Below are positions 9,532 to 62,938 of a stretch of DNA of 64,000 bases, one piece after another; position 1 is the first letter of the stretch; every line of letters begins with the position of its first letter. The notes beneath the pieces are model-generated. The model saw only the letters and a program-made list of their open reading frames with translations, was not told the DNA's origin and searched no databases. Where the stretch lies: positions 144,682 to 208,681 of the forward strand of contig JACPBG010000002.1 in NCBI GenBank assembly GCA_016180435.1. Reading direction: 5' to 3'. The stretch is from Candidatus Sungiibacteriota bacterium (GTDB taxonomy: Bacteria; Patescibacteriota; Minisyncoccia; Sungbacterales; HO2-52-23). The position numbers and the translations under genes are program-made.

Positions 9532-9535
9532 ACCT

Positions 9536-11905: not shown

Positions 11906-11944
11906 TTGACAATCGCTTGACAATCAAATATAGATTGCTTTACA

Positions 11945-13012: not shown

Positions 13013-13037
13013 ATATTTATAGTGAGCTTATCGAACT

Positions 13038-16015: not shown

Positions 16016-16019
16016 AATT

Positions 16020-16526: not shown

Positions 16527-16527
16527 T

Positions 16528-20720: not shown

Positions 20721-22163
20721 ATGATTTGCATGAAAAAAATAAATTATTTAATTATTGGAGGCGGAATTGCCGGAACAACCGCCGCCGAAACCATTCGCCG
20801 CCATGATCCTGTGGGAAGTATGGCCATTGTGTCGGATGAGCCGTATCGCCTGTATTCGCGGATAATGCTTTCCAAGCCGAATTTTTTTCTGGAGAAAATT
20901 CCTTTTGACCAGATTTGGCTGAAAAAAGAGTCATGGTATGCGGAAAATAACATTCAGGTGATTCTTGGGAAAAGCGCCGTAAAACTTAACCCGCAGGCCA
21001 AGATAGTTACTTTAAATACCGGGGAAGAACTGGAATATGAAAAATTGCTTTTGGCAGTTGGCGGATGCGCCCGGCGCTGGGATCTTCCGGGAGCGGAGAG
21101 GCGCGGTATTTTTTATCTGCGAACATTGGACGACGCTAAAGCAATTATGACAGCGGTTAACCCCGTTAGAACGGATACTTCGCGATTGGCCGAAGGCGGC
21201 ATTGAATCACCACCTCTTATATCTGCCTTAACCGTCGACCCGCTTCGCCATAGCTTTAGCGAGGCGAGCAGGAGTAAGCGGCGTTCTAACGGGGTAAAAA
21301 CTGCCCGACATGCGGTGGCTATTGGCGGAGGTTTTGTCAGTTTTGAAATGTGCGACATGTTGCGTTTGGCCGGAATTGACGTAACATTGCTTTTGCGGGA
21401 ATCTTATTTTTGGGAGCCGGTTCTGGACGAGACATCGGGACGCATGATCGAGGCGGCACTGGAAAAAGGCGGCGTTAAGATTATGCGGAATACCGAGGTT
21501 GGCAAAATAATCGGCCAGGATCGGGTGGAGGCAGTTGAGATTAACGGCGGAAAAAAAATCGCTTGCGATATGTTGATAGTCGGGATCGGAGTTTTTTGTC
21601 CTTTGGCCTGGCTGGAGGTCGCCGGGGTAAAAGTGGGGCGGGGGATATTGGCTAACGAGTATTTGGAAATCAATTTTCCCTATATATGGGTTGCGGGGGA
21701 CGCGGCGGAATTCAAGGATTTGATACTTGGCGAGCAGATTCAGCTTGGAAATTGGGTGAACGCGCAGATGCAGGGCAGGATAGCGGGGATGAATATGTCT
21801 GGATCCCTCGACCCGCTTCGCCCGCAAAGCGAGGCGAGCAAGCTCAGGACAAGAAAGGAGCCATTTCGCATGGTTTCGTTTTATACCACGATTGGTTTTG
21901 GCATTACCATTGCATTTGTAGGGGATGTCCGGCCGATGGAGGGCCGGACCATAATTTTGCGCGGTTCGGCCGATGCCGGATCTTACGTCCGGGTCATTGT
22001 AAAAGGCGGAGAAATAATCGGCGCCACCCTGATAAATCGCACCCAGGAGCTTGGACCAATTTCCAAACTGATTGAAAAGGACTTTAAAATCGCGGGGCGC
22101 GAAAAAGAGCTTGCGGACACATCTTTTGATCTGAAAAAATTGATTGAGAATTTGAAATCATAA
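20721..22163 (+). CDS. FAD/NAD(P)-dependent pyridine-nucleotide-disulfide-type oxidoreductase carrying two in-frame repeat insertions
   Basis: FAD Rossmann YLIIGGGIAGTTAAETI; second Rossmann HAVAIGGGFVSFEMCDML; C-terminal GDAAEF. Between them lie atypical inserts NPVRTDTSRLAEGGIESPPLISALTVDPLRHSFSEASRSKRRSNGVKTAR and SLDPLRPQSEASKLRTRK, encoded by GC-rich repeats. Confidence 0.7.
   Translation: MICMKKINYLIIGGGIAGTTAAETIRRHDPVGSMAIVSDEPYRLYSRIMLSKPNFFLEKIPFDQIWLKKESWYAENNIQVILGKSAVKLNPQAKIVTLNTGEELEYEKLLLAVGGCARRWDLPGAERRGIFYLRTLDDAKAIMTAVNPVRTDTSRLAEGGIESPPLISALTVDPLRHSFSEASRSKRRSNGVKTARHAVAIGGGFVSFEMCDMLRLAGIDVTLLLRESYFWEPVLDETSGRMIEAALEKGGVKIMRNTEVGKIIGQDRVEAVEINGGKKIACDMLIVGIGVFCPLAWLEVAGVKVGRGILANEYLEINFPYIWVAGDAAEFKDLILGEQIQLGNWVNAQMQGRIAGMNMSGSLDPLRPQSEASKLRTRKEPFRMVSFYTTIGFGITIAFVGDVRPMEGRTIILRGSADAGSYVRVIVKGGEIIGATLINRTQELGPISKLIEKDFKIAGREKELADTSFDLKKLIENLKS
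21234..21295. repeat. GC-rich hairpin repeat (CGACCCGCTTCGCC...AGCGAGGCGAGCAGG) plus a TTCTAACGGGG half-site, inside the oxidoreductase CDS
   Basis: Shares CGACCCGCTTCGCC and AGCGAGGCGAGCA with the second copy at 21807-21843. gcgttctaacggggtaa also occurs at 4510 and 27718. Confidence 0.5.
21807..21843. repeat. Second copy of the GC-rich hairpin repeat inside the oxidoreductase CDS
   Basis: ctcgacccgcttcgcccgcaaagcgaggcgagcaagc is in frame and encodes a non-conserved 18-aa insert. Confidence 0.5.
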
Positions 22164-24666: not shown

Positions 24667-26738
24667 TGATTCCCTTTATACCATTTAGAACAATCAAAAA
24701 ACGGGACGGAAGAATCGTTCCTTTTGACCCGTATAAAATTTCAAACGCCATTGAAAAAGCCGGAATTGCTACCGGTGAATTCGGGCGCGCCACTGCGGAA
24801 AAACTTATGCAAAGGGTGCTCTGGCAGGTGGAACATATGCCCGCAAATTATCTTCCGACCGTGGAGGAGGTTCAGGATATAGTCGAGGATGTCCTGTTAA
24901 GCTCTTTTTATAAAAAAACCGCCAAGTCGTATATTTTGTATCGCGATCAGCACGCCAAACTTCGCGATATGGTATCAACCGCCGAGGTGGATCTTATGGA
25001 ACGATACCTCGGTTTGGCTGATTGGCAGGTTCAGGAAAACAGCAATATGACCTATTCCCTGCAGGGCCTTAATAATTATGTTTCCTCCGAAATAAGCAAA
25101 GTGTACTGGTTGAATAAAATTTATCCCCCGGAAGTTGCGCGGACCCATCAGAGAGGGGACTTTCATATTCATGATTTAAACGTACTTTCGGTATATTGCG
25201 TGGGATGGGATCTGCATGATTTGCTGGCCCAGGGGTTTCGCGGGACCCGCGGGAAAATAGAAAGTAAGCCAGCTAAACATTTTCGTAGCGCTTTGGGGCA
25301 GGTTACCAATTTTTTCTATACTCTGCAGGGAGAAGCGGCCGGGGCGCAGGCGTTTTCAAACTTTGATACGCTACTGGCGCCGTTTATACGCTACGATAAA
25401 TTATCTTACGCCGAGGTGCGCCAAGCCATGCAGGAATTTGTTTTTAATATTAACGTGCCGACCCGGGTCGGATTCCAGACGCCTTTTACCAATGTAACCA
25501 TTGATCTGCAGGTGCCGAAAATGTATGCGGGCATGCCGGTCATAATCGGAGGAGCATATCAGAAAGAATTATACGGCGAGTTTCAAGGCGAGATGGATAT
25601 GTTTAACCGCGCGTTTCTTGAAATAATGATGGAAGGTGACGCGCGCGGCCGGATTTTTACGTTTCCCATTCCGACTTATAACATCACCAAGGGATTTGAC
25701 TGGAAAAATGAAAATATTGATATGTTGTGGCAGGTGGCTGCTAAATACGGGATTCCTTATTTTGCCAATTTTGTGAATTCAGATATGTCGCCGGATGACG
25801 CGCGTTCCATGTGCTGCCGCTTGCGCCTGGATATGCGCATGCTTGAGAAGCGCGGCGGGGGTCTTTTTGGAGCGCACCCGCTTACCGGATCCATTGGCGT
25901 GGTTACCATAAATATGCCGCGGCTGGGATATTTATCTCAAAACAAAGAAGAGTTTATGGAAAGATTAGAGCGCCTGATGGAACTTGGCAAAGAAAGTTTG
26001 GAGATTAAACGTAAAGCCCTGGATAGATTTACTGAAGGCAATCTTTATCCCTATTCCAAATTTTATCTGCGGGACATCAAAGAGCGTTTTGGCAATTACT
26101 GGGAAAATCATTTCTCTACCATTGGCCTGGTGGGCATGAATGAGGCATGTTTGAATTTATTGGGAAAGACAATTGCGGATCCGGAAGGCCATGAATTTGC
26201 CGCCGCGGTTCTTGATTTTATGAGAGAAAAGCTTTTATCTTTTCAGCAAGAAACCGGGCATAACTACAATTTGGAAGCCACACCGGCCGAAGGAACCGCT
26301 TATCGCCTCGCGCGCCTGGATAAAGAAACGCATCCGGAAATAATTTGCGCTAATGAAACTAAATGGAGAAGCGGAGCCAAGCCCTTTTATACTAATTCCA
26401 CTAATTTACCGGTGAATTATACCGATGATATTTTTGAGGCGTTTGATTTGCAGGATTCATTGCAGATAAAATATACCGGCGGGACGGTATTGCACGGATT
26501 TTTAGGTGAGCGCATGCCCTCGGGCGAGGCGGTTAAGCATTTGGTTAGAAAAGTGGTGGAAAATTACCGGCTTCCGTATTTTACCATTACCCCTACTTTC
26601 AGCATCTGTCCGGTACACGGGTATCTTGCGGGCGAGTACGAATATTGTCCGCGCTGTGATGAAGAAATGGGGTATAATTCAGAATTACAAAATGCATCGC
26701 CAAATCAAAGTCAGCCATTATTTTCAAAGGTCGGATAA
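24666..26738 (+). CDS. nrdD: Anaerobic ribonucleoside-triphosphate reductase, catalytic body (ATP cone to Zn ribbon), truncated before the glycyl-radical domain by an insertion
   Basis: ATP cone (IKKRDGRIVPFDPYKISNAIEKA); class III RNR core; Zn site CPVHGY...CPRC. The frame then runs into inserted sequence (EEMGYNSELQNASPNQSQPLFSKVG) and stops. The RVVGYY glycyl-radical motif is found only in the downstream mini-ORF. Confidence 0.9.
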   Translation: MIPFIPFRTIKKRDGRIVPFDPYKISNAIEKAGIATGEFGRATAEKLMQRVLWQVEHMPANYLPTVEEVQDIVEDVLLSSFYKKTAKSYILYRDQHAKLRDMVSTAEVDLMERYLGLADWQVQENSNMTYSLQGLNNYVSSEISKVYWLNKIYPPEVARTHQRGDFHIHDLNVLSVYCVGWDLHDLLAQGFRGTRGKIESKPAKHFRSALGQVTNFFYTLQGEAAGAQAFSNFDTLLAPFIRYDKLSYAEVRQAMQEFVFNINVPTRVGFQTPFTNVTIDLQVPKMYAGMPVIIGGAYQKELYGEFQGEMDMFNRAFLEIMMEGDARGRIFTFPIPTYNITKGFDWKNENIDMLWQVAAKYGIPYFANFVNSDMSPDDARSMCCRLRLDMRMLEKRGGGLFGAHPLTGSIGVVTINMPRLGYLSQNKEEFMERLERLMELGKESLEIKRKALDRFTEGNLYPYSKFYLRDIKERFGNYWENHFSTIGLVGMNEACLNLLGKTIADPEGHEFAAAVLDFMREKLLSFQQETGHNYNLEATPAEGTAYRLARLDKETHPEIICANETKWRSGAKPFYTNSTNLPVNYTDDIFEAFDLQDSLQIKYTGGTVLHGFLGERMPSGEAVKHLVRKVVENYRLPYFTITPTFSICPVHGYLAGEYEYCPRCDEEMGYNSELQNASPNQSQPLFSKVG

Positions 26739-26871
26739 AAAATCAACGAATAACGAATCATACGCGAATATGCGAATTTATAGTGAGCCTGTCGAACTAT
26801 TCGTTAATTCGCTTCATATTCGCTATTCGTTGATATCGCAGAATGAAAAATAAAACTCGTCAGCGCTGTGA
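26651..26871. mobile_element. 212-bp insertion in nrdD flanked by a 9-bp direct repeat GCGCTGTGA (26651-26659 and 26863-26871); it carries a stop, the ACGAAT palindrome and an outward ATG
   Basis: Removing the insert and one repeat copy restores ...YCPRCEVYSRVVGYYRPVEQWNEGKQAEFVERKEYD, a contiguous NrdD C-terminus. The interior contains the CAACGAATAACGAAT...ATTCGTTGATAT palindrome (26739-26842) and TTTATAGTGAGCCTGTCGAACTAT, which also occurs at 13017-13040. Confidence 0.7.
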
Positions 26872-27699: not shown

Positions 27700-27849
27700 C
27701 TTTGACAGGAATTGATGGCGTTCTAACGGGGTTAAGAGTGCATAACTTAATTTGATTCGTCTTTTTGGGGATAGTATGCTAAAAACAGATTATATAATTA
27801 AGTCCGAACCGTCCCTTTTTCAAAGGGGCGTGGGGATTTTTTACTAACT

Positions 27850-38214: not shown

Positions 38215-38552
38215 TTTTTCATTATAGCAAAATATACGGCAATTCGCTGATTGTGGATAGTTGGATTTGGTTAGTTTTCCGCCAGCGCTTATACTATATA
38301 AGACCTCCTGCATAATAAGCTTTCGTGACGAAATTTCAGAATTTTGTGCGAAAACGGCGAAGCGCGAGGCGGCATATATGGCATATATACGCCAACGAGC
38401 GATGAACCGTTTGCTTCTGCCTTCTTGGCAGAAGCCGGGGAAATTCTTAACGCTCGCACGGCTTTGCCGGCTCGCTAAATTTCCCGCGAATCACTGCATG
38501 ATTCGCCCCAAATTCTGAAATTGCAGTAGAAATGTTATTTTGCAGGAGGTCT

Positions 38553-38810
38553 ATGGTAGTGGAAGAGCCATCCTCTAAAAAAACGCTTTATATCAGTATT
38601 GTCGCGGCCCTCATTCTAATCGGAGGGATTATTTGGTATTGGTCGCAAAAGAGTGCTCCAGAACCGGTTGAACCGGCGGGCGCGGTTGGAGCGGCCGAGA
38701 CGTTGAGCGAATCGGTTCCGGAAATAAAAACCAATCTGGGGGAAAAAGTCCCGGAAGTAAATCCACTGGATCGGGCCAATCCGTTCAAATATAAAAATCC
38801 GTTAAGATAA
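38553..38810 (+). CDS. Small N-terminally anchored hypothetical protein
   Basis: MVVEEPSSKKTLYISIVAALILIGGIIWYW has one TM helix. Stop lies 1 nt before the MITE-like element. Confidence 0.3.
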   Translation: MVVEEPSSKKTLYISIVAALILIGGIIWYWSQKSAPEPVEPAGAVGAAETLSESVPEIKTNLGEKVPEVNPLDRANPFKYKNPLR

Positions 38811-38811
38811 T

Positions 38812-39042
38812 CCCGTTAGAAGCCGCGATCGCATATCGGGATTTAAATACCGTTAAATATTTCGAGTTTAATATAAATAATAACAAAGCAGATTGTATTA
38901 GTTGATCGCGATCCCGGTACCACAAATCCTGTCGGATTTGGCTACGGGACAAGTATGATCAAAACAAAGATTATTTTAAGCATGTCTCGCCCCGTAGTCA
39001 CCAAGTGTACGAGGTGTACTATCGGGGTCTGCTTCTAACGGG
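38812..39042. repeat. MITE-like element (CCCGTTAGAAGCCGCGATCGC ... CTGCTTCTAACGGG) directly abutting the ATG of the 39043 gene
   Basis: The first 26 nt are identical to the copy at 57156. It ends ...tctgcttctaacggg immediately before the ATG at 39043, and carries a ~115-nt extra internal segment relative to the 57156 copy. Confidence 0.6.
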
Positions 39043-41970
39043 ATGAAGACCTTAATAACAGTAAATCGAAAATTATTGCTGGCCATCTTATTTTTAGTGA
39101 GCGTAGCATTTACCGAAGCCGGGGCGACTGCCAACGACTCTTCCATAACTCTTAAAAAACCCCCGGGCGCGGAACGATTTATTTTGACCATTAACGATCC
39201 TGATGGAATTCAGGAGTTTTCGCTTTCTCCGGCCGCGCAATTCCGTTACGGCGGAATGTTGAGCGGCTGCAATAAGTCATTTTCGATTAAGGATGTATCC
39301 TTCAATGACCCGGCTGATTTTACGCCCAAGATGCCTGCCTATGTTATTGATTGTCAGAACAATACTCTGGAGCTTGAAATTTTTACTCCGGTTAAAGGGA
39401 TAGCTAAAAGTGTTGCGGTAAAAAAAGAAGCTCCGGCGCCGTCCCCGACGCCTGTAGAGAATTTAGAACTTAGAACCGAGAACTTAGCAAAACTTCCCGA
39501 AAAAAAGGGGCCTTTGTTGGCCGAAGACATTCGGTATCCGGTGCCCGAATTGGGAAATTGCCAAAGCGAGGCCGAATGCCGTTCGTATTGCGATAATGTT
39601 AATCACGCTAAGGAGTGCCTGGCATTTGCCAAGAAATATAATCTGATTTCAGCAGGAGAAGCCCAGGAAGCGGCTGATAAATTCCTTAATGTTAAAAATG
39701 GCCCCGGCGGCTGCAATTCCTGGTCTTCTTGCGAAAATTATTGCAATTCAATTGATCATCTGGATGCATGTATTACTTTTGCCGAGGAGACCGGTTATTA
39801 TTCCGGCGATAAATTGGCCGAGGCCCGAAAATTTCAAGGCCTGATAAAATCCGGGGAGAAATTTCCCGGAGGATGCCGCGATCGGAACTCCTGTGAAATT
39901 TATTGCGGCGACCCCAATCATATGGAAGAATGTTTGGATTTTGCCGAAAAAAGCGGCTTTATGCCCAAAGAGGAAATAGCGGAGGCCAGAAAATTCATGG
40001 CTTTAATGCGTAAAGGCGAGAGCCCGGGCGGATGCACCTCCAAAGAACAATGTGAAAAATATTGTTTTGAAGAAGATCATATGAATGAGTGTATTGATTT
40101 CGGTCTGAAAGCGGGAGTTATGACCGAGGAGGAGGCAGTAATGGCCCGAAAAGTTGGAGGAAAAGGTCCGGGCGGATGCCGCAGTAAAACGCAATGCGAT
40201 GCGTATTGCGAAGAACATTCCGAGGAGTGCTTTAATTTTGCCAAGGAGCATGGATTGATGAGTGAAAAAGACCTGGAACGAATGAGCAAGGGAATGGAAC
40301 AGTTCCGCGCTAATCTTGAAAAAATGCCTCCGGAAGCAGTTCAGTGTCTTGAGGATGCTATCGGCGAAGAAAATTTTGAGAAAATCAAAAATGGACAGCC
40401 GATTTTTGATAGAAGCATGGAAGGAAAAATGAAATCCTGTTTTGGACGGATGAGCGCCGATTTCAGTAAAAAGTTAGAGAAGCTCCCGCCCCAAGCCACG
40501 CAATGCATTAAAGATGCGGTGGGGGAAGAAGGACTGCAAAAATTACAAAGCGGAGAATTCGGCGAAGATCTTAATTTTGAATCATTGGAAGGATGTTTTA
40601 AGGCATTGCAGCAATCGTTGGGCGGAGGAGGTAATTTTAGCAAAGGCGGATTTGAGGGCCCCGGCGGATGCAAAAGCATGGAAGAATGCGTAGAGTATTG
40701 TACTGCCCATCATGAGGAGTGTGCGGGTTTTAGTCCTCCGGGTGGAGGCGGCGGAGGATTTCAGCGGGGTGATGGAGGATTTCAGGGCGGTGGACCGGGA
40801 GGATGCAGGAGCGAGGAAGAATGCCGGTCTTATTGCGAGGAACATCCGGATGAATGTGGCGGCGGGGGCGGTATGGGCGGTGGCGGCAGTAATGGTGTAA
40901 ATACGGGCGGTGGATTTAACGGACCCGGCGGCTGCGCTTCTATAGAGGGATGCATCGTATATTGCCGATCGCATACGGAAGATCGCGAATGCCGGGCTTA
41001 TACAGGCGGCGGAGAAGGGGGCGCGGGTTTTTCCGGTCCGGGCGGCTGTGCATCCATAGAGGATTGCGTGAGATATTGCCAAGCGCATTTTCAAGATCAA
41101 GAGTGCCAAGCCTACATAGGAGGCGGTGGCGGCGGGGGAGGAAACATTGGCGGCAATTCGCCAAGTTGCGCTCCGGCGCCTTTGGGCTTAGTCAGTTGGT
41201 GGAAAGGGGAATCAAGCGCGCAAGACAGTGCTGACGGAAATAGCGGAGCTCTTTCCGGAGGAGCTGGTTTTGCTGATGACGGAAAAGTCGGGAAGGCGTT
41301 TAAATTTAATAAAGGCAGCGTCAATATCGGAAATCCCGCTAATCTGAATTTCGGGACCGGGCCATTTTCTTTGGAGGCCTGGTTTCGCTGGGACGGCGGA
41401 GAAGGCGTAAATAATATCATCCGAAAATCAAACTATCCTTCCAGCGGCCCCGGATCGGGATATTGGTTCAGGGTAGGCAATGGAACCCTGGAATTTTCGA
41501 TTGGAGAAACTACCCAATCCGAAGGCCAGACCATTATTACCGCGCCCGTGGCTTCCGGAGTTTGGCATTATGCCGTTGGCACGAAAGATGATTCCGGCGG
41601 CGTTAAGTTATATGTGGATGGCGAGTCCCGGGGAACTATCCTGCGGTCTGCTCCCGGTACGCAATCAACAAGTGATGATCAGTTTACACTCGGATCATGG
41701 CGGGCGAGCTCCGAATTTTTTTCCGGCCTGATCGATGAGGTTTCCGTATATAACCGAGCGCTTAACGCGTCAGAAGTCCAGGCCATTTTCAATGCGGGTA
41801 ATGCGGGTAAATGCTCTGTTCAGTCAAGTCCCGCGCCAATTCCTCCGCCCGGCGGCCAAATCCCTCCGGAATATTGTTCATATTTTACAGCCGTACCAAG
41901 TTGTTCCTATGTTGGTCCGGCGGGATCGCAAGATTATAATTACTGCAAGCAGTGTTTTCCGGATAAATAA
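39043..41970 (+). CDS. Secreted Cys-rich repeat protein (8x ~45-aa C4H modules), Gly-rich spacers, C-terminal concanavalin/LamG-like domain
   Basis: Signal peptide MKTLITVNRKLLLAILFLVSVAFTEA. Repeats GPGGCNSWSSCENYCNSIDHLDACITFAEETGY, PGGCRDRNSCEIYCGDPNHMEECLDFAEKSGF and others. GGGG runs. C-terminal LIDEVSVYNRALNASEVQAIF fits Laminin_G_3. Confidence 0.7.
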   Translation: MKTLITVNRKLLLAILFLVSVAFTEAGATANDSSITLKKPPGAERFILTINDPDGIQEFSLSPAAQFRYGGMLSGCNKSFSIKDVSFNDPADFTPKMPAYVIDCQNNTLELEIFTPVKGIAKSVAVKKEAPAPSPTPVENLELRTENLAKLPEKKGPLLAEDIRYPVPELGNCQSEAECRSYCDNVNHAKECLAFAKKYNLISAGEAQEAADKFLNVKNGPGGCNSWSSCENYCNSIDHLDACITFAEETGYYSGDKLAEARKFQGLIKSGEKFPGGCRDRNSCEIYCGDPNHMEECLDFAEKSGFMPKEEIAEARKFMALMRKGESPGGCTSKEQCEKYCFEEDHMNECIDFGLKAGVMTEEEAVMARKVGGKGPGGCRSKTQCDAYCEEHSEECFNFAKEHGLMSEKDLERMSKGMEQFRANLEKMPPEAVQCLEDAIGEENFEKIKNGQPIFDRSMEGKMKSCFGRMSADFSKKLEKLPPQATQCIKDAVGEEGLQKLQSGEFGEDLNFESLEGCFKALQQSLGGGGNFSKGGFEGPGGCKSMEECVEYCTAHHEECAGFSPPGGGGGGFQRGDGGFQGGGPGGCRSEEECRSYCEEHPDECGGGGGMGGGGSNGVNTGGGFNGPGGCASIEGCIVYCRSHTEDRECRAYTGGGEGGAGFSGPGGCASIEDCVRYCQAHFQDQECQAYIGGGGGGGGNIGGNSPSCAPAPLGLVSWWKGESSAQDSADGNSGALSGGAGFADDGKVGKAFKFNKGSVNIGNPANLNFGTGPFSLEAWFRWDGGEGVNNIIRKSNYPSSGPGSGYWFRVGNGTLEFSIGETTQSEGQTIITAPVASGVWHYAVGTKDDSGGVKLYVDGESRGTILRSAPGTQSTSDDQFTLGSWRASSEFFSGLIDEVSVYNRALNASEVQAIFNAGNAGKCSVQSSPAPIPPPGGQIPPEYCSYFTAVPSCSYVGPAGSQDYNYCKQCFPDK

Positions 41971-42015
41971 ATCGTCAACGAATAACGAATTTTTTTACGA
42001 ATATAACGAATTTGT
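41971..42015. repeat. Partial ACGAAT-repeat element (copy 3; CGGATAAATAAATCGTCAACGAATAACGAAT...) supplying the stop region of the upstream gene
   Basis: Shares GGATAAA(W)AAATC(G)TCAACGAATAACGAAT with the nrdD-splitting copy (26730-26760). Only the left arm is present. Confidence 0.4.
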
Positions 42016-42226: not shown

Positions 42227-45200
42227 ATGCACAATATCAAACGATTATTTACCCCGTTACTTGATTGTGGAGTATGGAACCTTACGGAAAATATGAACGA
42301 CCATTGCGACAAACCAGCAGTAAGACCGCGGGGTATTCAAGTAATGGGGTTTTTACCCGCGATTTTTGCCGGCGTTTTTTTAATTTTAGCCGGTCCGGCC
42401 CAGGCCGCTATCAGTATTGCCGCTCCGCCGATTGACGCCATATTTGGAGATAAAACCGCCGGCGGAGGATCATATATGCCTTTGATGAAATTTCAGTTAA
42501 ACCAGTCCTCGGGTTCGGATACGCTGTCAAGCGTCCGGGTCGCGATTTACTCAACCACCACGCCCAATAACTTAACCACCGGAGAGATCAATAAACTTTA
42601 TCTTTTCAAAGAATCCGGCGCGCATTTTGATTTTCAGCCGGGTGAAGATATTCAGGTTAACACCGGTGCTAACGAAGTTACGGATCCGGCCACCAGCACC
42701 GCCGTAACCATTACCGTGGACGCGGATAAAAATACGGTGGGCACGTCCCCCACGGAATATTATATAGTAGGCCGCGCCACTACGAGTGCCGCAACTGCGG
42801 CGGGTAAAATTACCAATGGACATGCGCTCTACGCCACAACCTCCGCTAATTGGCTTACAACTTCGGCCGTATCCCTGGGAAGTGAATTTATCGGACAGCG
42901 AAAAATCACGCTGGAGCAGTCAGCGGCTTTGAAGATCAGCGAGGTGCGTTTGGGCACCACCGGCAATGCCGGTAATGAGTTCATTGAACTTTATAATACA
43001 TCTGATTTTCCGGTTGATTTGTCGCTTTTGCCTTTGAACCTTTATATTTTTGATGCCTCCGGCGGCGCGGGATTAAAGTCCCTGACTTATTTTAAAAAAA
43101 TCATTCCGGCCAAAGGGTTTTTCCTGATTGCCTCCGAAACCAATTATAGCGGAGCCACGCCTCCGGATGCGGTTTATACCACGTTTTCCGGAAATACTTT
43201 GATCTCCGATACCGGATTAGCCATAGCCACTTCCAGCGCCGTAGCCAATGCCACCAGTTCGGATATTGATCGGATTGCCTGGGGCGCCCAGCCCGCGGCC
43301 AATGCCGAGGGAACGGCTCTGGCTGATCTTGCGGCAGACAGGAGTTATGAGCGCAAAGCAAGCACCACCTCGACCAATGCCACTATGGCGCCGGGAGGAA
43401 TAGATGCCGGTAAAGGCAATGGCCATGATGTGGATGCCAACAGCACGGATTTTGTGGAACAAACCGGCGCCGGAGTTAATCCGCAAAATTCGTCAAGTCC
43501 GCATGAGTTTTCTTTTGGCGGCGGGGTGATTGATTCGGAAAAGCCCTTTGTAGGCGGATCATATCCTGGTCCGAATCAGACTGGAGTTCCGGTGGACATG
43601 CCTTTTATCGGTTTTGGATTTAATAAGGTTGTGGCAACCGGCACCATTATTTCGGCTACTGCCACCTCAACCGTAACTCTTACTGCTGCCGGGTCCGGCA
43701 CCAATCTTTGCACCAGCGTATCGTATAATCCCTTTCCGTCTAATTTTGAGCCGCCGGCCAAATGTAATCTATCGGCCCAGTTATTGATCAGCACCACTTA
43801 TACTTTTACGGTGGCAACTTCTGTGGCAGATCTTTCCGGAAATGCATTGGATCAAGATTCGTTTTTAGCCGGAAATCAGGCGCATCAATTTACCTTTAGT
43901 ACCGGCGGAGCCGGACAGACCATTACCAATACCATTCCGCCGGCAGTAACAGGCACTAATCCATTTCCCGGAGGCATTAATATCCCGACCAATATTGCCA
44001 AAATTTCCGTAAAATTCAGCCAGTCCACCATGGATACGTCAACTCTGAATGCAACCAACATTACCTTATCGGGTGCGACGCTTTCGGGATTTTCGTTCGA
44101 TGCCACTACAAGTTTATTGTCTATTGTTCCGAGTTCTCTGGTGGCGAATACAAGTTATACTTTGACCGTGGGTACGGGCGTAAAGAACTTAAACGGGATT
44201 TTTATGCCCGGACCGTATATAACCACTTTTAAAACCGGAGGGGGCGCGGATTATACGGCTCCGAATGTGGTTGGGGTTTTGCCCACTCCCGGCACTACGC
44301 TTCCTTTGAATGCGGTTGATTTTGTTTTTTCCACGGATGATCATCTTGATCCATCCACTGCAACATCCGGCGCCGTAACCTTGTCTTTCGGCGGGTCTAA
44401 TCTGCCCGGTGCTGTAAGTTATGATTCAGTGGCCAAAGAAGGGCATTTTACCGCAACCAATCCTTTGCTGGCCGGCGCGGCAAACAATCTTGTTTTGACG
44501 CTGGTGGGCGGAGCGTTAAAAAATATTACCGGTTCAACAACTGCGGCAGTTGTACGCGCCTGGTCAACCGAAGGCGCCAATTCGGACTCTACCGGACCGA
44601 CCGTTATTTTTGCCAATTCCGATCCGTTCGGTCTGGCCGTAACATTTAATGAGGCCGTGAAAGAAACCGATGCGAAGACATTGGCAAACTACAGTTTAAC
44701 TGTCGGCGGATCCTCTTTGCCGTTAAGCAGTTTTGCCGGACATACGATTTCATATGATGTTTCCCGCCGGACTTCAAAAATTTCCGGAGTGTTTTTGTCC
44801 CCGGGCGCGGTATTTAATATCAGCGCATCCAATATCCGCGATATTTCGGGAAACGCAATGTCCGGATCATCCGCCGCCACAAGTACCGTTATGACCGGCG
44901 CGGCCTCCGGTGGATTCCTGGGACCCGGTGAGTCAACCGGAAATTACGGTCCGGATATCAAGGATTTTTCGTCATCCGGCATTGGTTTTATGCCGGGCAC
45001 GAGAGTCATGCCGATTAACGCCTTTATTTCAGCCAGCACTACCTATGGATTTGAACTTCCCTTATCTAAACAAATTTCAGCTAACGGCACGATTGTAATC
45101 ACTTTTCCTTCAAGTTCGGATTTCGGGGTGTGCTGTGCTGCTACCAGTTCCGCATCCAACCCTTTTATTTCCGAGCAAAACAAAGACATAAACGGTCCGG

Positions 45201-48200
45201 GGGACGGGCTCATTGGCATAAAAACCATTACCAAAGATACGACTGCCAAGACCATTACTTTAACTTTGGATACGGCCACGCGTTCGGAATTGGGAGATAC
45301 GCATGACTTTTTGCGCTTGGCGTTAAATGACATTAAAAATCCCTCGGTTCCCAAAGGCATAGACAGTTCCGGATATGCTCTGGATATAAAAACCAAAAGT
45401 TCAGCCGGCGCTATTCTGGAAACATTTACTTCCAATCCGATCTTTGTTTCCGGCGGAGCAGTGGGAGGATCGGCCACCACCACGATCAGGGGCAAAATTT
45501 CAGGGGATAGCGAGAATTTAGCCGGAGTTTCGGTGCGCATAATGTCTCCGCAAATCGGGATGCTGGAATCAACCACGGATGCCAATGGCGATTACCAGTT
45601 CTTGAATGTGCCGGTCAATGATCAGATTTCAAGCTTTGGCGGGGCCGGGGCGGAATATTTCTTTTTTACCGATCCCTTTATTGATCCGACCAATACCGCC
45701 ACGGACTTTTTTGGCAATCCCCAGCCGATTCCCATACGCGCAACCTCAACCAGTATTGTTACCCAGAATTTAACTCTGACCCCGACAACGCAGGCCGTGA
45801 ATTTCACTGTAAAAATTACCGGAAATAATTTAACTAATGCGATTTTCAAAGTCGGGGAGTCGGTGGATGTTTTTGCCGGCGGGCCATCCAAATTCGTGGT
45901 AAAGACCGTTTCAACGAGCGCCACGAATTATAGCGCTACTACTCTTACAACCATGCCTATTCCTCAAACCAACGGAATTTGGGGCATTGGCTTGGGTCCG
46001 GCTATGCCCAAAGGCATGGGTAGTATGAATTTCGGTCCTCCGCCCTCGCCCCTATGGGTTGTGCCCAAGCCGGTTGAAGTTGAAGTTAGCGGATGTCCGG
46101 ATGCGTGTACATCTACCATTAATGGAAGCACGGCAACGTCCTATACGTTTACAGTTTCAGTTGCTAACCGTCCGATCACCGGAATTTTAAAAGACGGATC
46201 AGGCAATGTGATTTCCGGAGCCGAAGTGTTTGCCTTTTCTCCGGCAGCCGGCATTGGCAATCACATTCAGACCGCGCCCAATGGAGTATTTACGGTTTTG
46301 GTGACCGACGGTTCATTTAATGTGGGAGCCTTTATTCCGGGAATCGGAAGTTCATCTGAAATTCCGGTAACAGTCAACGCCTCCGGAGTATTTGTGAACG
46401 GTTCCACAACCGCATCCACCGGCGCTACGGGCGCCAATCCGTTTGTTTTGACTATTAAAAAGCCGAGTTTCACCATTACCGGTCGGGTGAGCGACGGTTC
46501 CAGTGCCGTATCCAATGCTCCGGTGTTCTCGTATCGCACTGATGCGCCCGGACACGCGGATGCGGTTACCGATTCTTCCGGAAATTATACTTTATATGTG
46601 GATAACGGCACCTGGAAAGTGAATGCGTTTGTGCCGGGATTTGGTCCAGCCGGGGAGCAGACCGCGACTATCAGCGGATCTTCCAAGTCCGGAGTAAATT
46701 TCTCGCCTTCCACCTCGGTTACTTTCCGCACCATAACCGGAATTGTGTTTGAATCCGCGGATGCTGCGATTGCCACTTCCACCGAAGGAGTTTCCGGAGT
46801 TGTAGTTCGGGTATCCGGCGCCAATGGCACGAATGAGGCCTTGACCGGATCAGACGGCACTTTTACGATCCGCGTTCCGTCCGGATCCTACAATATCGTG
46901 GATATTTTCAAGCCCGGTTATGGCAGAATTCCTCCGCTAAATCATGCGCTGTCCGCTATTGGCGCAATTGACGTATCAAGCGGAAATGCTTACCAGCCGA
47001 TCCGCATAAATTCGCGCAGCACCGTTACCATAACGGTAAAAGATTCAAGCGGCAGTCCGCTTACCGTATCCAAGGCATTCATTGACCTTTTTGACGCCAA
47101 TAAGAACTTTGGAAATCATGCGGTAATTACCAATGGCACCACCACCACGATCCAAATTTCGCAAGGAGCATCTTCAACCATACGCGCCTTTGTGGAAGGA
47201 GTTCCTCAAGCCAATGTTTCGGTGGCATCCGATGCCGGCGCCGGGACTTTGGTACTGTCCGGGGTTTTGGAAGTAAACGCCGCAACCGAAGCCATAAAGA
47301 TTACGGTAAATACCAATACTGCGGCTTTGCATTCGGTTTCCGGAACGGTTTATGCCGGATCGGTTGCCGCGGGCAATGAATTGGCGGATGCCTGGGTGCA
47401 GTTTGTGGATTCTTCCAATAACGTGCATTTCGGAACTCAAGCAACTTCTTCCGGAATATATTCTTTGCGCGTGGCCAGCAGTACCTATCAAGTAGCGGCC
47501 ATGAAACCCGGATACATCAGCACTCCCGCATCCATTACTATAAATGCCGCAACTTCCAGCACACATGTTGTAGTGGTCCAGGCCGCCTCCAGCATCAAAG
47601 GATCAATCACGGCCGGGGGATCAGCTGCTTCGGGTGCTTTTGTCTGGGCGGAGAAACTTGGCGGAGGATTTGCATCCAGCCGCACTGATACGTCCGGAAC
47701 ATATACCCTAACCGTGGATTCCGGCCAGTGGAAAGTATTTGCCGCGGCTGAAGGGTACACCAAGGCCGCTTATTCTTCCAATCCGGCATCAGCCGGCGCC
47801 AGCGGCATAGATATTGCCCTGACTTCTCTGGCCAGCAGTATTAGTTCAACTTTGGTTACGTCTAATACTTTTTCGGATAATTCAACCGGAGTTTTGTCCG
47901 ATTCCACTTTGGGGGTTAAAGTGTCGCTTGATTCTGGGGCGCTCGGATCAGCCGGAACCAATGCCTATGTTACGGCTAAAGAAACCTCCAATGTTCCCGA
48001 GACCCTTGATACCAATATCATCGGCGATAAAGGAATTGATATTGATGCGGTAAACGGATCAAGCGCAGTTACTAAACTGCAAACCGGCAAAAGCGCTGAA
48101 ATTACCATGAATTATACTAAGACCGAACTTGCCGCAGACGGAATTGATACTACGGACGAAGTTGCGGCTCTGAAAGTTGTGAGCTGGAGCGATGATAAAA

Positions 48201-49477
48201 AGTCCTGGGAATCGCTGACCACTGTCGCGACATATAAAGATGCGGACGGCAATCCGGTGGCAACACCAACGTCCAATCTTTCCAATGTGACCAGCGTTGA
48301 TTTCACTACCGTCGGCGCATCTCACTTTTCCGAATACGCCTTGTCATCTCCGACCAATTCCGATGCTCCGGCCATTCCCACCGGACTTGCGGTTAGCGAC
48401 AGCGGTACCACCGCCACCCTTACTTGGACCGCTAACACCGAATCGGATTTGTCCGGATACTTTATTTATCGTGATACCACTGCGGCCGGATCTTTCCCGC
48501 AACTTGCGCAGGTTGGCGCGGTAACCACTTATTCCAGCACCGGACTTACGGCGGGCCAGACATATTATTATAAGATTTCCGCTTTTGATACGGCCAGTAA
48601 CGAATCAGCTGCCAGCGCATCCAAATATGTTACGATTGCTCCGTCATCCGGAGGTTCAAGCAGCGGCGGTGGAGCAAGCGGCGGCGGCGGAGGCGGAGGA
48701 GGTGTTTCTTCGGTATCTGTATCTACACCCACGCCTACGCCCACATCCACACCCACACCTATTTCTGCATTAACATCAGTTACAACACCAGCGCCTTTTG
48801 CAGTAGCATCGCCTCCGGCGTCTGTTGTCGCTAAACCATCCGCGGTTGCCATAGCCGCATCCCCGGTATTTAACTCGGATCTTGAGTTTGGCATGCGCGG
48901 GGAGGATGTCAGGCGTTTGCAGGAATTGTTGCGGCAAGACCCGGAAATTTATCCGGATGGAATTGTGAGCGGATATTTCGGCCCCTTGACCGCGCAGGCC
49001 GTAAGAAAATTCCAGGAAAAATACGGGCTTCCGGCGGTGGGAAGAGTTGGACCGCTAACCCGAGAAAAATTGAGCAGAGCATTTGGGCAAAGCGTACCTG
49101 CGCCTGAAGTTGCTAAGCCCTCTTCGGTCGCCGTATCCGCATCCCCGGTATTTAACTCGGATCTTGAACCCGGTATGCGCGGGGAGGATGTCAGGCGTTT
49201 GCAGGAATTATTGCGGCAAGACCCGGAAATTTATCCGGATGGAATTGTGAGCGGATATTTCGGCCCCTTGACCGCGCAGGCAGTCAGGCGTTTCCAAATA
49301 AAGCATGGTCTGCCATCTCCCGGGCGGGTAGGGCCGCAAACCAGAACTAAACTTCAAGAGGCGTTCGGCGGCGCATCATCACTTTCTGCTCCGTTGGTTT
49401 CTCCCGATGAACGTATCCGTGAATTACAGGAAAAACTCCGCTTGCTTCAGGAACAAGTTCAAAAGCTCCTGCGTTAA
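42227..49477 (+). CDS. Giant secreted cell-surface protein (2416 aa): Big/Ig-like, CarboxypepD_reg-like, FN3, Gly/Ser and PT linkers, two C-terminal peptidoglycan-binding domains
   Basis: Probable start MGFLPAIFAGVFLILAGPAQA (~42347). Repeated Ig-like segments. SGNYTLYVDNGTWKV and SGIYSLRVASSTYQV are CarboxypepD_reg-like. FN3 (LTWTANTESDLSGYFIYRD...TYYYKISAFDTASNES). GGSSSGGGASGGGGGGGGVS and TPTPTPTSTPTP linkers. Tandem GEDVRRLQELLRQDPEIYPDGIVSGYFGPLTAQAVRKFQ PG-binding domains. Confidence 0.75.
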   Translation: MHNIKRLFTPLLDCGVWNLTENMNDHCDKPAVRPRGIQVMGFLPAIFAGVFLILAGPAQAAISIAAPPIDAIFGDKTAGGGSYMPLMKFQLNQSSGSDTLSSVRVAIYSTTTPNNLTTGEINKLYLFKESGAHFDFQPGEDIQVNTGANEVTDPATSTAVTITVDADKNTVGTSPTEYYIVGRATTSAATAAGKITNGHALYATTSANWLTTSAVSLGSEFIGQRKITLEQSAALKISEVRLGTTGNAGNEFIELYNTSDFPVDLSLLPLNLYIFDASGGAGLKSLTYFKKIIPAKGFFLIASETNYSGATPPDAVYTTFSGNTLISDTGLAIATSSAVANATSSDIDRIAWGAQPAANAEGTALADLAADRSYERKASTTSTNATMAPGGIDAGKGNGHDVDANSTDFVEQTGAGVNPQNSSSPHEFSFGGGVIDSEKPFVGGSYPGPNQTGVPVDMPFIGFGFNKVVATGTIISATATSTVTLTAAGSGTNLCTSVSYNPFPSNFEPPAKCNLSAQLLISTTYTFTVATSVADLSGNALDQDSFLAGNQAHQFTFSTGGAGQTITNTIPPAVTGTNPFPGGINIPTNIAKISVKFSQSTMDTSTLNATNITLSGATLSGFSFDATTSLLSIVPSSLVANTSYTLTVGTGVKNLNGIFMPGPYITTFKTGGGADYTAPNVVGVLPTPGTTLPLNAVDFVFSTDDHLDPSTATSGAVTLSFGGSNLPGAVSYDSVAKEGHFTATNPLLAGAANNLVLTLVGGALKNITGSTTAAVVRAWSTEGANSDSTGPTVIFANSDPFGLAVTFNEAVKETDAKTLANYSLTVGGSSLPLSSFAGHTISYDVSRRTSKISGVFLSPGAVFNISASNIRDISGNAMSGSSAATSTVMTGAASGGFLGPGESTGNYGPDIKDFSSSGIGFMPGTRVMPINAFISASTTYGFELPLSKQISANGTIVITFPSSSDFGVCCAATSSASNPFISEQNKDINGPGDGLIGIKTITKDTTAKTITLTLDTATRSELGDTHDFLRLALNDIKNPSVPKGIDSSGYALDIKTKSSAGAILETFTSNPIFVSGGAVGGSATTTIRGKISGDSENLAGVSVRIMSPQIGMLESTTDANGDYQFLNVPVNDQISSFGGAGAEYFFFTDPFIDPTNTATDFFGNPQPIPIRATSTSIVTQNLTLTPTTQAVNFTVKITGNNLTNAIFKVGESVDVFAGGPSKFVVKTVSTSATNYSATTLTTMPIPQTNGIWGIGLGPAMPKGMGSMNFGPPPSPLWVVPKPVEVEVSGCPDACTSTINGSTATSYTFTVSVANRPITGILKDGSGNVISGAEVFAFSPAAGIGNHIQTAPNGVFTVLVTDGSFNVGAFIPGIGSSSEIPVTVNASGVFVNGSTTASTGATGANPFVLTIKKPSFTITGRVSDGSSAVSNAPVFSYRTDAPGHADAVTDSSGNYTLYVDNGTWKVNAFVPGFGPAGEQTATISGSSKSGVNFSPSTSVTFRTITGIVFESADAAIATSTEGVSGVVVRVSGANGTNEALTGSDGTFTIRVPSGSYNIVDIFKPGYGRIPPLNHALSAIGAIDVSSGNAYQPIRINSRSTVTITVKDSSGSPLTVSKAFIDLFDANKNFGNHAVITNGTTTTIQISQGASSTIRAFVEGVPQANVSVASDAGAGTLVLSGVLEVNAATEAIKITVNTNTAALHSVSGTVYAGSVAAGNELADAWVQFVDSSNNVHFGTQATSSGIYSLRVASSTYQVAAMKPGYISTPASITINAATSSTHVVVVQAASSIKGSITAGGSAASGAFVWAEKLGGGFASSRTDTSGTYTLTVDSGQWKVFAAAEGYTKAAYSSNPASAGASGIDIALTSLASSISSTLVTSNTFSDNSTGVLSDSTLGVKVSLDSGALGSAGTNAYVTAKETSNVPETLDTNIIGDKGIDIDAVNGSSAVTKLQTGKSAEITMNYTKTELAADGIDTTDEVAALKVVSWSDDKKSWESLTTVATYKDADGNPVATPTSNLSNVTSVDFTTVGASHFSEYALSSPTNSDAPAIPTGLAVSDSGTTATLTWTANTESDLSGYFIYRDTTAAGSFPQLAQVGAVTTYSSTGLTAGQTYYYKISAFDTASNESAASASKYVTIAPSSGGSSSGGGASGGGGGGGGVSSVSVSTPTPTPTSTPTPISALTSVTTPAPFAVASPPASVVAKPSAVAIAASPVFNSDLEFGMRGEDVRRLQELLRQDPEIYPDGIVSGYFGPLTAQAVRKFQEKYGLPAVGRVGPLTREKLSRAFGQSVPAPEVAKPSSVAVSASPVFNSDLEPGMRGEDVRRLQELLRQDPEIYPDGIVSGYFGPLTAQAVRRFQIKHGLPSPGRVGPQTRTKLQEAFGGASSLSAPLVSPDERIRELQEKLRLLQEQVQKLLR
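48857..49295 (+). repeat. Tandem duplication (~282-nt period, two copies about 95% identical over ~155 nt) encoding two peptidoglycan-binding domains at the C-terminus of the giant protein
   Basis: gcatccccggtatttaactcggatcttga...gatatttcggccccttgaccgcgcaggc is repeated at 48857 and 49139. Confidence 0.6.
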
Positions 49478-49560: not shown

Positions 49561-49657
49561 CCCCGTTAGAGATTTATAGAATATCGAACCCAGTTAAGAA
49601 AAAAATCATATTTTCATCTATATAGTTGGGTCTTGTCGCTCCATATCTCTAACGGGG
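49561..49657. repeat. MITE-like element with terminal inverted repeats CCCCGTTAGAGATTTA ... ATATCTCTAACGGGG
   Basis: Terminal inverted repeats identical to the copy at 24074..24174. AT-rich interior. Lies between the terminators of the giant gene and the 3' end of the minus-strand gene 49675..50187. Confidence 0.6.
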
Positions 49658-54325: not shown

Positions 54326-54760
54326 ATGAATTTTTTATCGAAAATTAATCCGGAGTGGCCTTTGCGCCTTGGCCTTGGTATAATGTATTTGTATTCGGGT
54401 TATGATCTGATGTTAAACCCCAGTGCCTGGATTTGGGCTGTGCCCTGGTGGTTTTCAAAAATAGTAACTTTTTTAATGCCGCTTGATTCTTATTTACGAT
54501 TGCAGGGCGCAGGAGAGTTTATTATGGGAGTTTTGTTTCTGGCCCCATTAGAATTAATTTTAACGGGGCGAGCGTGGTTTTCTATCAGACATGTATTACG
54601 GGTTGTTTCTATACTGGCGGTGATTGAGCTTGTTGGCATACTTATTTTTACGGGGATTGGGCCGATTACCTTTCGTGATATCGGGCTTTTGGGAGGGGCG
54701 ATTGCGCTCTTAGTTATGACGTTTTCTACCCAAAGAGAAATTTCAGGTAAAGTCGAATAA
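54326..54760 (+). CDS. Small DoxX-like polytopic membrane protein
   Basis: LRLGLGIMYLYSGYDLMLNP with four TM helices; similar topology to the 24265 protein. Confidence 0.4.
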   Translation: MNFLSKINPEWPLRLGLGIMYLYSGYDLMLNPSAWIWAVPWWFSKIVTFLMPLDSYLRLQGAGEFIMGVLFLAPLELILTGRAWFSIRHVLRVVSILAVIELVGILIFTGIGPITFRDIGLLGGAIALLVMTFSTQREISGKVE

Positions 54761-57039: not shown

Positions 57040-57150
57040 CCAATCCGATGCAAATTTAATGCCAATTTGGCGAATTGCGAATATTCGCATAATTAGCAAT
57101 TTGTAGATTAGCATTTCATTTGTAGATTTGCATCATTGCGCGTTAGCGAA
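57040..57150. repeat. GCGAAT/ATTCGC-rich palindromic spacer related to the ACGAAT family
   Basis: ttggcgaattgcgaatattcgcataattagc...gcgcgttagcgaatgaat resembles the nrdD-element segment acgcgaatatgcgaattt. Confidence 0.35.
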
Positions 57151-57155
57151 TGAAT

Positions 57156-57271
57156 CCCGTTAGAAGCCGCGATCGCATATCAAGATATAAAAATCATTGT
57201 GAATTACCAATTAAATATAAATTATAAACATAGTAAATCGCATCAATTGATCGCGATCTGCTTCTAACGGG
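57156..57271. repeat. MITE-like element (CCCGTTAGAAGCCGCGATCGC ... GATCGCGATCTGCTTCTAACGGG) directly abutting the ATG of the cupredoxin gene
   Basis: ~21-nt terminal inverted repeats. Same family as 38812..39042, with 26/26 identity at the 5' end. Ends immediately before the ATG at 57272. Confidence 0.6.
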
Positions 57272-57709
57272 ATGAATAAATACGCCATCTTAATTATAAT
57301 AGGTGTCCTGATTATCGGTTTCGGTGTTTTTTACCGCGCGTTTTTGTTGTCGGATGAGGCCAAGCCGGTAACAACCGGAAAAGTTCGCGAAGTGACAATC
57401 ATCGCCAAAAAAAACGAATGGCGGTTTGTGCCGGAAGTTATTGAAGCCGAGCGCGGGGATAAGATTGTGATAACCGCGGTGAATGAGGATGATTATGACC
57501 ACGGGATTGCCATTGACGCTTTTGGGCAATCCCAAAGAATGCCGGCGCGTTCCACCATAAAAATGGAATTTGTAGTAACCCAGGAAGGGGAGTTCCCGTT
57601 TTATTGCTCGGTGCCTTGCGGAGAAGGGGATGTGGACGGGAAACATAGGACCCATTTTGATATGATAGGGAAGTTGGATGTAAAAAGTGTGGTGAGTTCA
57701 ACGCAGTGA
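57272..57709 (+). CDS. Membrane-anchored cupredoxin-domain protein with a CuA-like ligand pattern
   Basis: N-terminal TM YAILIIIGVLIIGFGVFY. C-terminal FYCSVPCGEGDVDGKHRTHFDM fits C-x3-C-G-x-H-x2-M as in CuA/COX2-type cupredoxins; an upstream His lies in DDYDHGIAID. Confidence 0.55.
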   Translation: MNKYAILIIIGVLIIGFGVFYRAFLLSDEAKPVTTGKVREVTIIAKKNEWRFVPEVIEAERGDKIVITAVNEDDYDHGIAIDAFGQSQRMPARSTIKMEFVVTQEGEFPFYCSVPCGEGDVDGKHRTHFDMIGKLDVKSVVSSTQ

Positions 57710-62912: not shown

Positions 62913-62938
62913 AATAATATAGAGAGTAAATGTATAAA

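Follow-up and report, generated by a model that had tools for sequence, protein, structure and literature searches.

The two elements el4 (38811-39043) and el6 (57155-57272) of the window, that is, the whole 64-kb stretch of DNA analysed here from a Candidatus Sungbacteria MAG (CPR/Patescibacteria), are very likely non-autonomous, MITE-like mobile DNA hairpins without coding capacity, which belong to a superfamily present across many uncultivated phyla. Their family membership, flanking repeats, empty sites, 13-bp covarying terminal stem, link to start codons and fixed orientation are shown by the evidence below. Three features of a MITE are present, namely terminal inverted repeats, target-site duplication with empty sites, and a small, non-coding, multicopy form.

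Two copies at start codons and their family in the window

It had been predicted originally that the two copies share their 5' end, terminate in the same sequence followed immediately by ATG and have termini that pair with each other, and all three claims held. The identity at the 5' end covers 29 nt rather than 26 (38809-38837 equals 57153-57181; AATCCCGTTAGAAGCCGCGATCGCATATC), both 3' termini read ...CTGCTTCTAACGGG (also written GCTTCTAACGGG) directly before ATG, and RNAfold closes each of el4 and el6 with a 14-bp stem (z = -6.5 and -7.3 against shuffled sequences, respectively). According to Pfam and NCBIfam scans, the ATG at 39043 opens a gene for a 975-aa Laminin_G_3 protein and that at 57272 a gene for a 145-aa cupredoxin. 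The internal addition of about 115 nt claimed for the longer copy was also confirmed. The limits of the elements had to be corrected, since the true ends lie one base farther out (T38811...A39043 and T57155...A57272), so that each element ends with the A of the ATG. The parts of the two copies are as follows.

38811-39043, + strand: el4, long-form T..A element of 233 nt, whose terminal A is the A of the Laminin_G_3 ATG
38811-38823 and 39031-39043, + strand: 5' arm (TCCCGTTAGAAGC) and 3' arm (GCTTCTAACGGGA) of el4
38914-39028, + strand: internal segment of el4 (115 nt) that distinguishes the long from the short form and is also present in the long-form copy of another genome (L103 7262-7574)
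38807-38810 and 39044-39047, + strand: left flank ATAA and right flank TGAA of el4
57155-57272, + strand: el6, short-form T..A element of 118 nt, whose terminal A is the A of the cupredoxin ATG
57155-57167 and 57260-57272, + strand: 5' arm and 3' arm of el6
57150-57154, + strand: original start codon and left repeat copy of el6 (A+TGAA), with the right copy TGAA at 57273-57276

The left flank of el4 contains the TAA stop codon of the ORF at 38532-38810, and the repeat around this copy is imperfect (ATAA versus TGAA), which we infer to result from a secondary deletion of 8 nt. The motif GCGATCGC is present in both copies; its reading as a cyanobacterial HIP1 signature was rejected, as it occurs nowhere else in the window. 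Two further repeats were observed in the neighbourhood. A 40-nt inverted repeat (75% complementary; 38285-38324 and 38529-38568) brackets the region upstream of the small ORF that precedes el4. A separate AT-rich repeat family made of CGAAT/ATTCG units lies directly after stop codons at 3732-3775, 26735-26834 (with inverted arms at 26742-26777 and 26799-26834), 41967-41990 and 57040-57150, and one of its copies abuts el6 on the upstream side.

The two copies had been taken for a separate second family, and this part of the prediction failed. They form a sub-lineage of a superfamily that includes the CCCCGTTAGA...TCTAACGGGG copies at 14296, 21161, 24074 and 49561, and differ from the other window copies solely at the outermost base pair, which is T..A in el4 and el6 and C..G in the others. 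The ends of the superfamily can be written [C/T]CCCGTTAGA...TCTAACGGG[G/A], el4 and el6 representing the 'T..A' lineage. With 14 occurrences in the window, the 9-mer TCTAACGGG far exceeds the expectation of 0.38, and none of 100 shuffles reached this number (0/100). Altogether the window holds six complete copies, three lone 3' ends and one degenerate mini copy; those other than el4 and el6 are listed here.

14296-14345, + strand: el1, C..G-type element of 50 nt in the hsdM ORF (3' part), its own 3' end being degenerate (TCTAATGGGG)
21161-21294, + strand: el2, C..G-type element of 134 nt within an FAD oxidoreductase gene, flanked by TTAA and TAAA
24074-24174, + strand: el3, C..G-type element of 101 nt with an exact TGGA repeat on both sides, after a cytochrome c gene and its terminator
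49561-49657, + strand: el5, C..G-type element of 97 nt with an exact TTTG repeat on both sides, between convergent genes
4495-4520 (core 4511-4520), + strand: lone 3' end of the el2 subfamily (GACAGGAGTCGGCGACGTTCTAACGGGG), followed by TAAA
27706-27731 (core 27722-27731), + strand: lone 3' end of the el2 subfamily, followed by TTAA
33750-33759, + strand: lone 3' end TCTAACGGGG, followed by TGGATAAC, with a flank similar to that of el3
54543-54568, + strand: possible degenerate mini copy of 26 nt (CCCCATTAGA...TTTAACGGGG) inside the ORF at 54326-54760, for which the evidence is weak

Several features in the surroundings of these copies are recorded as separate observations. The hsdM ORF (13038-14516) is part of a defence island at 7394-17796, which comprises AbiEi/AbiEii (7394-8720), RadC (8863-9531) and a type I restriction-modification operon with hsdR (9536-11905), hsdM and hsdS (16528-17796), where a reverse-transcriptase ORF (14345-16015, RVT_1) and an ORF of unknown kind lie between hsdM and hsdS. 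A tandem duplication of 249 nt (82% identity; 48815-49345) is found within the ORF of 2416 aa at 42227-49477, and a perfect palindrome of 50 nt (62933-62982; 25-nt arms without spacer) lies just past a P-type ATPase gene (60405-62912).

Flanking repeats, empty sites and the terminal stem

Three uninterrupted orthologous sites show that the window copies el2, el4 and el6 are insertions. For el2, the two flanks overlap by exactly 4 columns when aligned on the uninterrupted ortholog L250 (82% identical), with TTAA and TAAA beside the element and a single TCAA in the ortholog, and such an exact overlap is what an insertion creating a 4-bp repeat leaves behind. The element together with the repeated flank amounts to 134+4 nt (138 nt, 46 codons), by which the frame is kept, and the insert reads ...NPVRT...RRSNG.... 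The closest FAD-dependent oxidoreductase homologues (82% identical) are without this insert, and a homologue with 63% identity (L001) has a related element at the same site as well as a second in-frame copy in an RND-MFP gene. For el4, the nearest Laminin_G_3 relative (L249) reads stop TAA-ATC-ATG and has no element. For el6, the relatives with a 93%-identical cupredoxin have the dsbD stop, 20 nt and then ATGAATAAATAC, and those with a 77%-identical cupredoxin have a 4-nt spacer followed by ATGAAC. In addition, the long-form copy in L103 holds a nested C..G element, for which el4 represents the empty site.

Two observations concern the same loci. In the homologue P0025, a low-complexity insert of 44 aa lies 5 residues past the el2 site, so that this loop of the FAD oxidoreductase accumulates insertions; a second lineage-specific insert of about 16 aa (SLDPLRPQSEASKLRT) is found in this protein at about 21800-21860 of the window. 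In the relatives without el6 (L243-L246, about 1470-1510), the cupredoxin start is preceded by CTAAAAACGGG|ATGAAT, which resembles the 3' arm TCTAACGGG|ATG and might be either a natural pseudo-site or the remnant of an old copy.

The direct repeat is a general property of the elements. It is exact over 4 bp in 71 of 135 elements, versus 4 of 135 for the next 4 nt, which served as a control, and identity over 5 nt was seen once. The consensus T-N-N-A is preceded by a purine and followed by a pyrimidine (R|T-N-N-A|Y), the commonest forms being TAAA/TTTA, TGAA/TTCA and TCAA/TTGA. Flanks that do not match each other still match TNNA far above the background of 7%; all host sequences are MAGs or metagenome contigs, and some of the flank mismatches may be assembly chimeras at repeats. 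Where copies stand in tandem, the neighbouring ends are always 4 nt apart (4/4). Furthermore, the left and right tetranucleotides co-vary among the copies of one subfamily (TGAA/TGAA, TGGA/TGGA and TGAG/TGAG). A model with a 6-bp duplication, in which the terminal C/G or T/A would be derived from the target, was rejected because the outer positions usually differ between the flanks.

Some features of the repeat are odd for a MITE moved by symmetric cut-and-paste. No palindromic tetranucleotide (TTAA, TATA, TGCA or TCGA) was found among 159 exact repeats (0/74 and 0/85), while palindromes make up 22% of the background TNNA sites; for the C..G elements, with 61 repeats of the TNNA type, p = 3e-7. 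The pair TTTA...TGAA recurs as mismatched flanks and the converse was never seen. The orientation of the tetranucleotide is fixed within subfamilies: the el4/el6 subfamily (TCCCGTTAGAAGCCGC...TGCTTCTAACGGGA; 16 copies in 14 contigs) always has TG.. repeats in a single orientation, two C..G subfamilies have TAAA in one orientation (4/4 copies each), and in the el2 subfamily the right tetranucleotide is steadier than the left (TAAA in 4/5 copies). For a bias of TAAA versus TTTA relative to the gene strand, the cases were too few to show a trend. The strict covariation of the stem pairs is odd in this respect as well. The oddities of the repeat would follow naturally if a recombinase used a joined-end site with an asymmetric overlap, or if the tetranucleotide of the donor were carried over, neither of which is proven.

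The stem was analysed in 266 distinct arm pairs. Position 1 is C-G in 141, T-A in 122 and mixed in 3; positions 11, 12 and 13 form Watson-Crick pairs in 95%, 91% and 80%, respectively, with all four pair types represented, and from position 14 on the pairing is at chance level. The terminal stem is thus exactly 13 bp long, consisting of 10 fixed and 3 covarying pairs, where the fixed part reflects the search design, since the scans demanded exact 10-mers and the conservation statistics at positions 1-10 are conditioned on that search. The covarying pairs at positions 11-13 indicate that the constraint is a 13-bp helix and not merely a protein-binding sequence repeated at both ends. The interior is variable, AT-rich and unconserved, and the median length is 95 nt for the C..G and 116 nt for the T..A elements. 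A minimal element of 26 nt (TCCCGTTAGAAAATTTTCTAACGGGA) was noticed in L066 (2989-3014) with TTTA on both sides, so a terminal stem with a 4-nt loop may suffice for mobility.

Start codons and host genes

The original prediction that these are MITEs inserting next to start codons is supported by the flanking repeats, the empty sites and the start-codon link of the T..A lineage, and can be sharpened in that the insertion lies inside the start codon and not beside it. At el6, the target TGAA lies within ATGAAT, the left flank retains ATGAA, and the terminal A together with the duplicated TG gives the ATG at 57272. Among the T..A elements from metagenomes, the terminal A followed by TG opens a long ORF in 112 of 132; in a stricter test, which required the upstream frame to be closed, this was the case for 98 of 137 T..A elements versus 22 of 144 C..G elements. 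The share of copies at start codons is therefore 72-85% of about 135 T..A elements, all in one orientation, and about 15% of the C..G elements. The left flank is still ATG in 88 of 117 T..A elements, the repeats of which are nearly all TGNN (TGAA 54, TGGA 12, TGAG 8, TGCG 5). A like tendency is seen in those C..G elements whose repeats are of the TG type, where GTG starts result (16/24). Additional copies away from start codons had been named as a refutation of the prediction; in the window these (el2 intragenic, el3 and el5 intergenic) belong only to the sister C..G lineage, not to the T..A lineage.

The orientation can also be read independently of the gene. Next to the inner end of their 3' arm, the T..A elements have a conserved (C)CT (69% and 68%), which is absent from the C..G elements, and when the elements were oriented by this internal CT marker alone, TGAA was found 36 times and TTCA twice. 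In-frame intragenic insertions make up only about 4% of the copies; the element is read through in el2, in the two copies of L001 and also in L016, L043 and L106.

It may be objected that the link to start codons reflects nothing but the preferred target and the loss of harmful insertions. Background ATGAA sites are start-like in 11%, and in 51% once sites within long ORFs are discarded as lethal. Sequence preference and survivorship thus account for much, but not all, of the share of 72-85%, with the reservation that this background may be crude. The excess (85% versus about 51%) could come from the crudeness of the background, or possibly from targeting or positive selection.

In the explanation that we propose, insertion would duplicate a 4-bp non-palindromic T-N-N-A target, and the T..A lineage would land on A|TG(A/G)A, that is, the start codon with the two bases that open the next codon (A|TGAA). 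The original ATG would remain on the left, and on the right the terminal A and the duplicated TG would rebuild an ATG, leaving the gene intact and in frame, so that the insertion would be tolerated even in very compact genomes. That this rebuilding is the reason why the copies persist, and that the gene is still expressed, is inferred.

The consequences for translation were followed from the old start codon. Reading from the old ATG gives ATG-AAT-CCC-GTT-AGA (M-N-P-V-R), and in el6 a uORF of 25 codons (57150-57227) begins at the old start codon and terminates within the element. Among 89 elements, this frame is closed within the element in 44 and by the TAA of the 3' arm, 4 nt ahead of the new ATG, in 22; in the other 23 it continues beyond, a few of these being in-frame N-terminal extensions. 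Coupling of uORF termination to the new start was rejected as a general rule, for only 22/89 copies have this arrangement. At least one copy (L232) stands at the start of a DnaX-like clamp-loader gene, as identified by eye; as this gene is apparently essential, the downstream ATG is suggested to be used and expression to survive, which remains an inference. The old Shine-Dalgarno sequence is displaced by about 100 nt upstream in three loci, judged by eye, whereas it is lacking at the copies of the window.

No promoter signal at a fixed position was recognized in the elements: the sense strand does not exceed the antisense strand in the position-specificity of its -10-like hexamers, and a promoter scan of el6 gave none on the + strand. 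The sense strand folds more stably than the antisense strand with only a weak bias (63 versus 52, p=0.07), and subterminal local hairpins occur in many T..A copies. With the Rfam 15 covariance models, the window gave one tRNA only at or above the gathering score, and nothing relevant at E<=1 around el4 or el6. The host genes of the T..A elements are functionally unrelated.

Distribution, candidate enzymes and rival explanations

The family is widespread and apparently undescribed. A scan of one genome per species with the exact pattern CCCCGTTAGA-N55-85-TCTAACGGGG gave at least 120 loci, of which about 17 are expected by chance according to our own estimate, and a scan of metagenomes with the T..A version gave at least 120 loci as well. 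True membership is broader than these exact-end scans, as variants such as TCTAATGGGG in el1 show. Judged by the record titles, the hosts belong to at least 12 phylum-level lineages, including many CPR classes, Omnitrophota, Planctomycetota, Desulfobacterota/Thermodesulfobacteriota, Nitrospirota, KSB1, WOR-3, Stahlbacteria, Cloacimonadota, Ratteibacteria, Edwardsbacteria and uncultured Gammaproteobacteria. Identical ends over such a range imply either very wide horizontal spread or a strongly constrained, unidentified enzyme. Carriage by phages is hardly supported, with a single match among 2.9 M viral contigs, and literature searches by exact sequence and keyword revealed no description of this hairpin family.

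The enzyme itself was not identified. For an autonomous partner, the analysis covered end pairs spaced 0.5-6 kb apart, lone ends beside ORFs, and the ORFs of the retrieved loci, first 760 and later 4670, clustered all against all. Neither a transposase or recombinase nor a long autonomous copy was recognized close to about 280 elements, in the window or within about 1.7 Mb of retrieved loci; the remaining parts of the genomes lie outside this search. The ORF clusters near the elements are housekeeping only (e.g. PilB/PilC, ABC ATPases and response regulators), and Pfam and NCBIfam scans of 30 window ORFs gave no transposase or recombinase. With no enzyme at hand, several candidates can be entertained, none of which is likelier than not. 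Slightly ahead is a transposase of the DDE type (IS1380- or piggyBac-like) that cuts with a 4-bp stagger. A recombinase of the site-specific kind, using the circular junction TCTAACGGG[G/A]-TNNA-[C/T]CCCGTTAGA with an asymmetric overlap, comes close behind; a circular or joined-end intermediate would read TCTAACGGGN-TNNA-NCCCGTTAGA at the junction. A single-strand HUH enzyme recognizing the hairpins is improbable, and so is an enzyme of some other kind. In a bolder reading, which is no more than a possibility, the T..A lineage would be a start-codon-directed integration system served by a structure-specific, hairpin-recognizing or site-specific enzyme, whose asymmetric overlap would contain the ATG and whose circular or joined-end site would be TCTAACGGG-A|TGAA|T-CCCGTTAGA. 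This would jointly explain the strict orientation, the heritable tetranucleotide, the absence of palindromes and the 13-bp covarying stem, and if it is true, the hairpin closing on the A of AUG might be a portable module for translational control or initiation in genomes poor in intergenic DNA.

A first rival explanation is that the T..A elements are functional cis-acting modules, mobility serving merely for their spread, with selection keeping the start-codon site and the orientation. They could act by sequestering the start codon, by bridging the old Shine-Dalgarno sequence to the new AUG, by uORF coupling or by carrying a promoter; split ribosome-binding sites are known from genes 25 and 38 of phage T4. 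Such a role is possible and compatible with the mobile-element reading as an added layer. It is favoured by the enrichment at start codons above the background of tolerated sites, the strict orientation to the gene, the (C)CT restricted to the T..A lineage, the covarying stem pairs, the DnaX-like copy that suggests surviving expression, and the uORFs ending at the TAA of the 3' arm. Against it speak the lack of a single translational arrangement (44 / 22 / 23), of a position-specific -10, of a clearly more stable sense strand and of any Rfam match, as well as the unconserved interior and the unrelated host genes. The cis-acting 5'-UTR hairpin, which was the alternative in the original prediction, is thus neither shown nor excluded, and may be a consequence of insertion or a co-opted role.

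The remaining rivals are weaker. A Y1 HUH transposase (RAYT or TnpA) could have moved the elements in single-stranded form, as hairpins of the REP/REPIN kind or derived from IS200/IS605, the 'repeat' then being the target tetranucleotide plus an element-borne copy and not a true duplication. Like REP/REPIN-RAYT and the IS200/IS605 PATEs, they are hairpin-based and non-autonomous with a tetranucleotide beside the stem, and the stem covariation, the oriented subfamily-specific tetranucleotide, the steady right TAAA of the el2 subfamily, the subterminal hairpins and the wide spread without a nearby transposase, as for single-copy RAYTs, fit as well. This origin is nevertheless unlikely, as the GTAG or CGTC tag that marks the 5' end of a REP palindrome is missing (T-N-N-A flanks surround a stem that starts with CCCC or TCCC), the left and right tetranucleotides co-vary as a real duplication predicts, terminal inverted repeats are present here and absent from IS200/IS605, whose PATEs also leave no target duplication and insert 3' of a fixed tetra- or pentanucleotide, copies lie in genes and start codons rather than being strictly extragenic, and neither a Y1 gene nor any recurrent small ORF occurs among the 4670 ORFs (>= 90 aa) near the elements, with the reservation that a RAYT could lie elsewhere in the genomes. 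Integron-type attC sites or gene-cassette boundaries would agree with the core GTTAGA/TCTAAC (matching GTTRRR/YYYAAC at the hairpin base), the conserved structure with a variable loop and the asymmetric bulge on one arm. The attC layout is 5'-RYYYAAC...GTTRRRY-3' on either strand, and here the boxes are reversed (5'-GTTAGA...TCTAAC-3', GTT belonging to the 5' and AAC to the 3' arm); moreover, the elements lie at gene starts or inside genes and not after cassette ORFs, and no intI or cassette array was found in the scanned window ORFs. This contradiction makes the attC explanation very improbable. The family therefore lacks one or more defining features of each of REP/RAYT, IS200/IS605 and attC. 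Because every host sequence is a metagenome assembly, one might suspect a chance likeness or an artefact of assembly or adapters, but this is all but ruled out by hundreds of copies from unrelated studies and assemblers, by the exact repeats and empty sites, and by the consistent link to the reading frame.

On the reading as MITE-like elements, the nearest likeness is to the Correia/NEMIS elements of Neisseria, bacterial MITEs of about 50-230 nt that likewise have no ORF, terminal inverted repeats, short target repeats, many copies, hairpin-forming transcripts and frequent placement beside genes. The present family differs from them in that no cognate IS is known, the ends are invariant over many phyla and not within one genus, 10 bp are conserved together with 3 covarying pairs, the repeat is a 4-bp non-palindromic T-N-N-A, as against TA in Correia elements, and one lineage is specialized in start codons, where it restores the ATG. 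The Rickettsia palindromic elements (RPEs), which are known only from Rickettsia, are also palindromic and tolerated in coding genes through retention of the frame, but their sequences are unrelated and they have no link to start codons, and only about 4% of the copies described here are intragenic and in frame. With piggyBac and IS1380 the family shares a 4-bp repeat of the T..A type and CCC/GGG ends. PiggyBac is known for TTAA and CCC...GGG ends, and ISfinder gives 4-5-bp repeats and 'CC' ends for IS1380, which is a lead and not a test. In contrast to these families, TTAA is never an exact repeat (0/159), the orientation bias and the stem covariation are foreign to them, and no such transposase was found in the window or the retrieved loci.

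If the reading as mobile elements is confirmed, mobile DNA can colonize the extremely compact genomes of CPR/Patescibacteria by using the roughly one thousand start codons of each genome as self-repaired safe landing sites. An AUG whose A closes a 13-bp stem and whose Shine-Dalgarno sequence is displaced would also be a natural test case for translation initiation. In MAG gene calls, the insertions appear as spurious N-terminal extensions, as GTG starts, as in-frame 'PVR...SNG' peptide inserts and as split intergenic regions. As a separate observation from the retrieved loci, the GyrA gene in a Portnoybacteria contig (L037 2852-6673) contains a large intein-like insert, as judged by eye.
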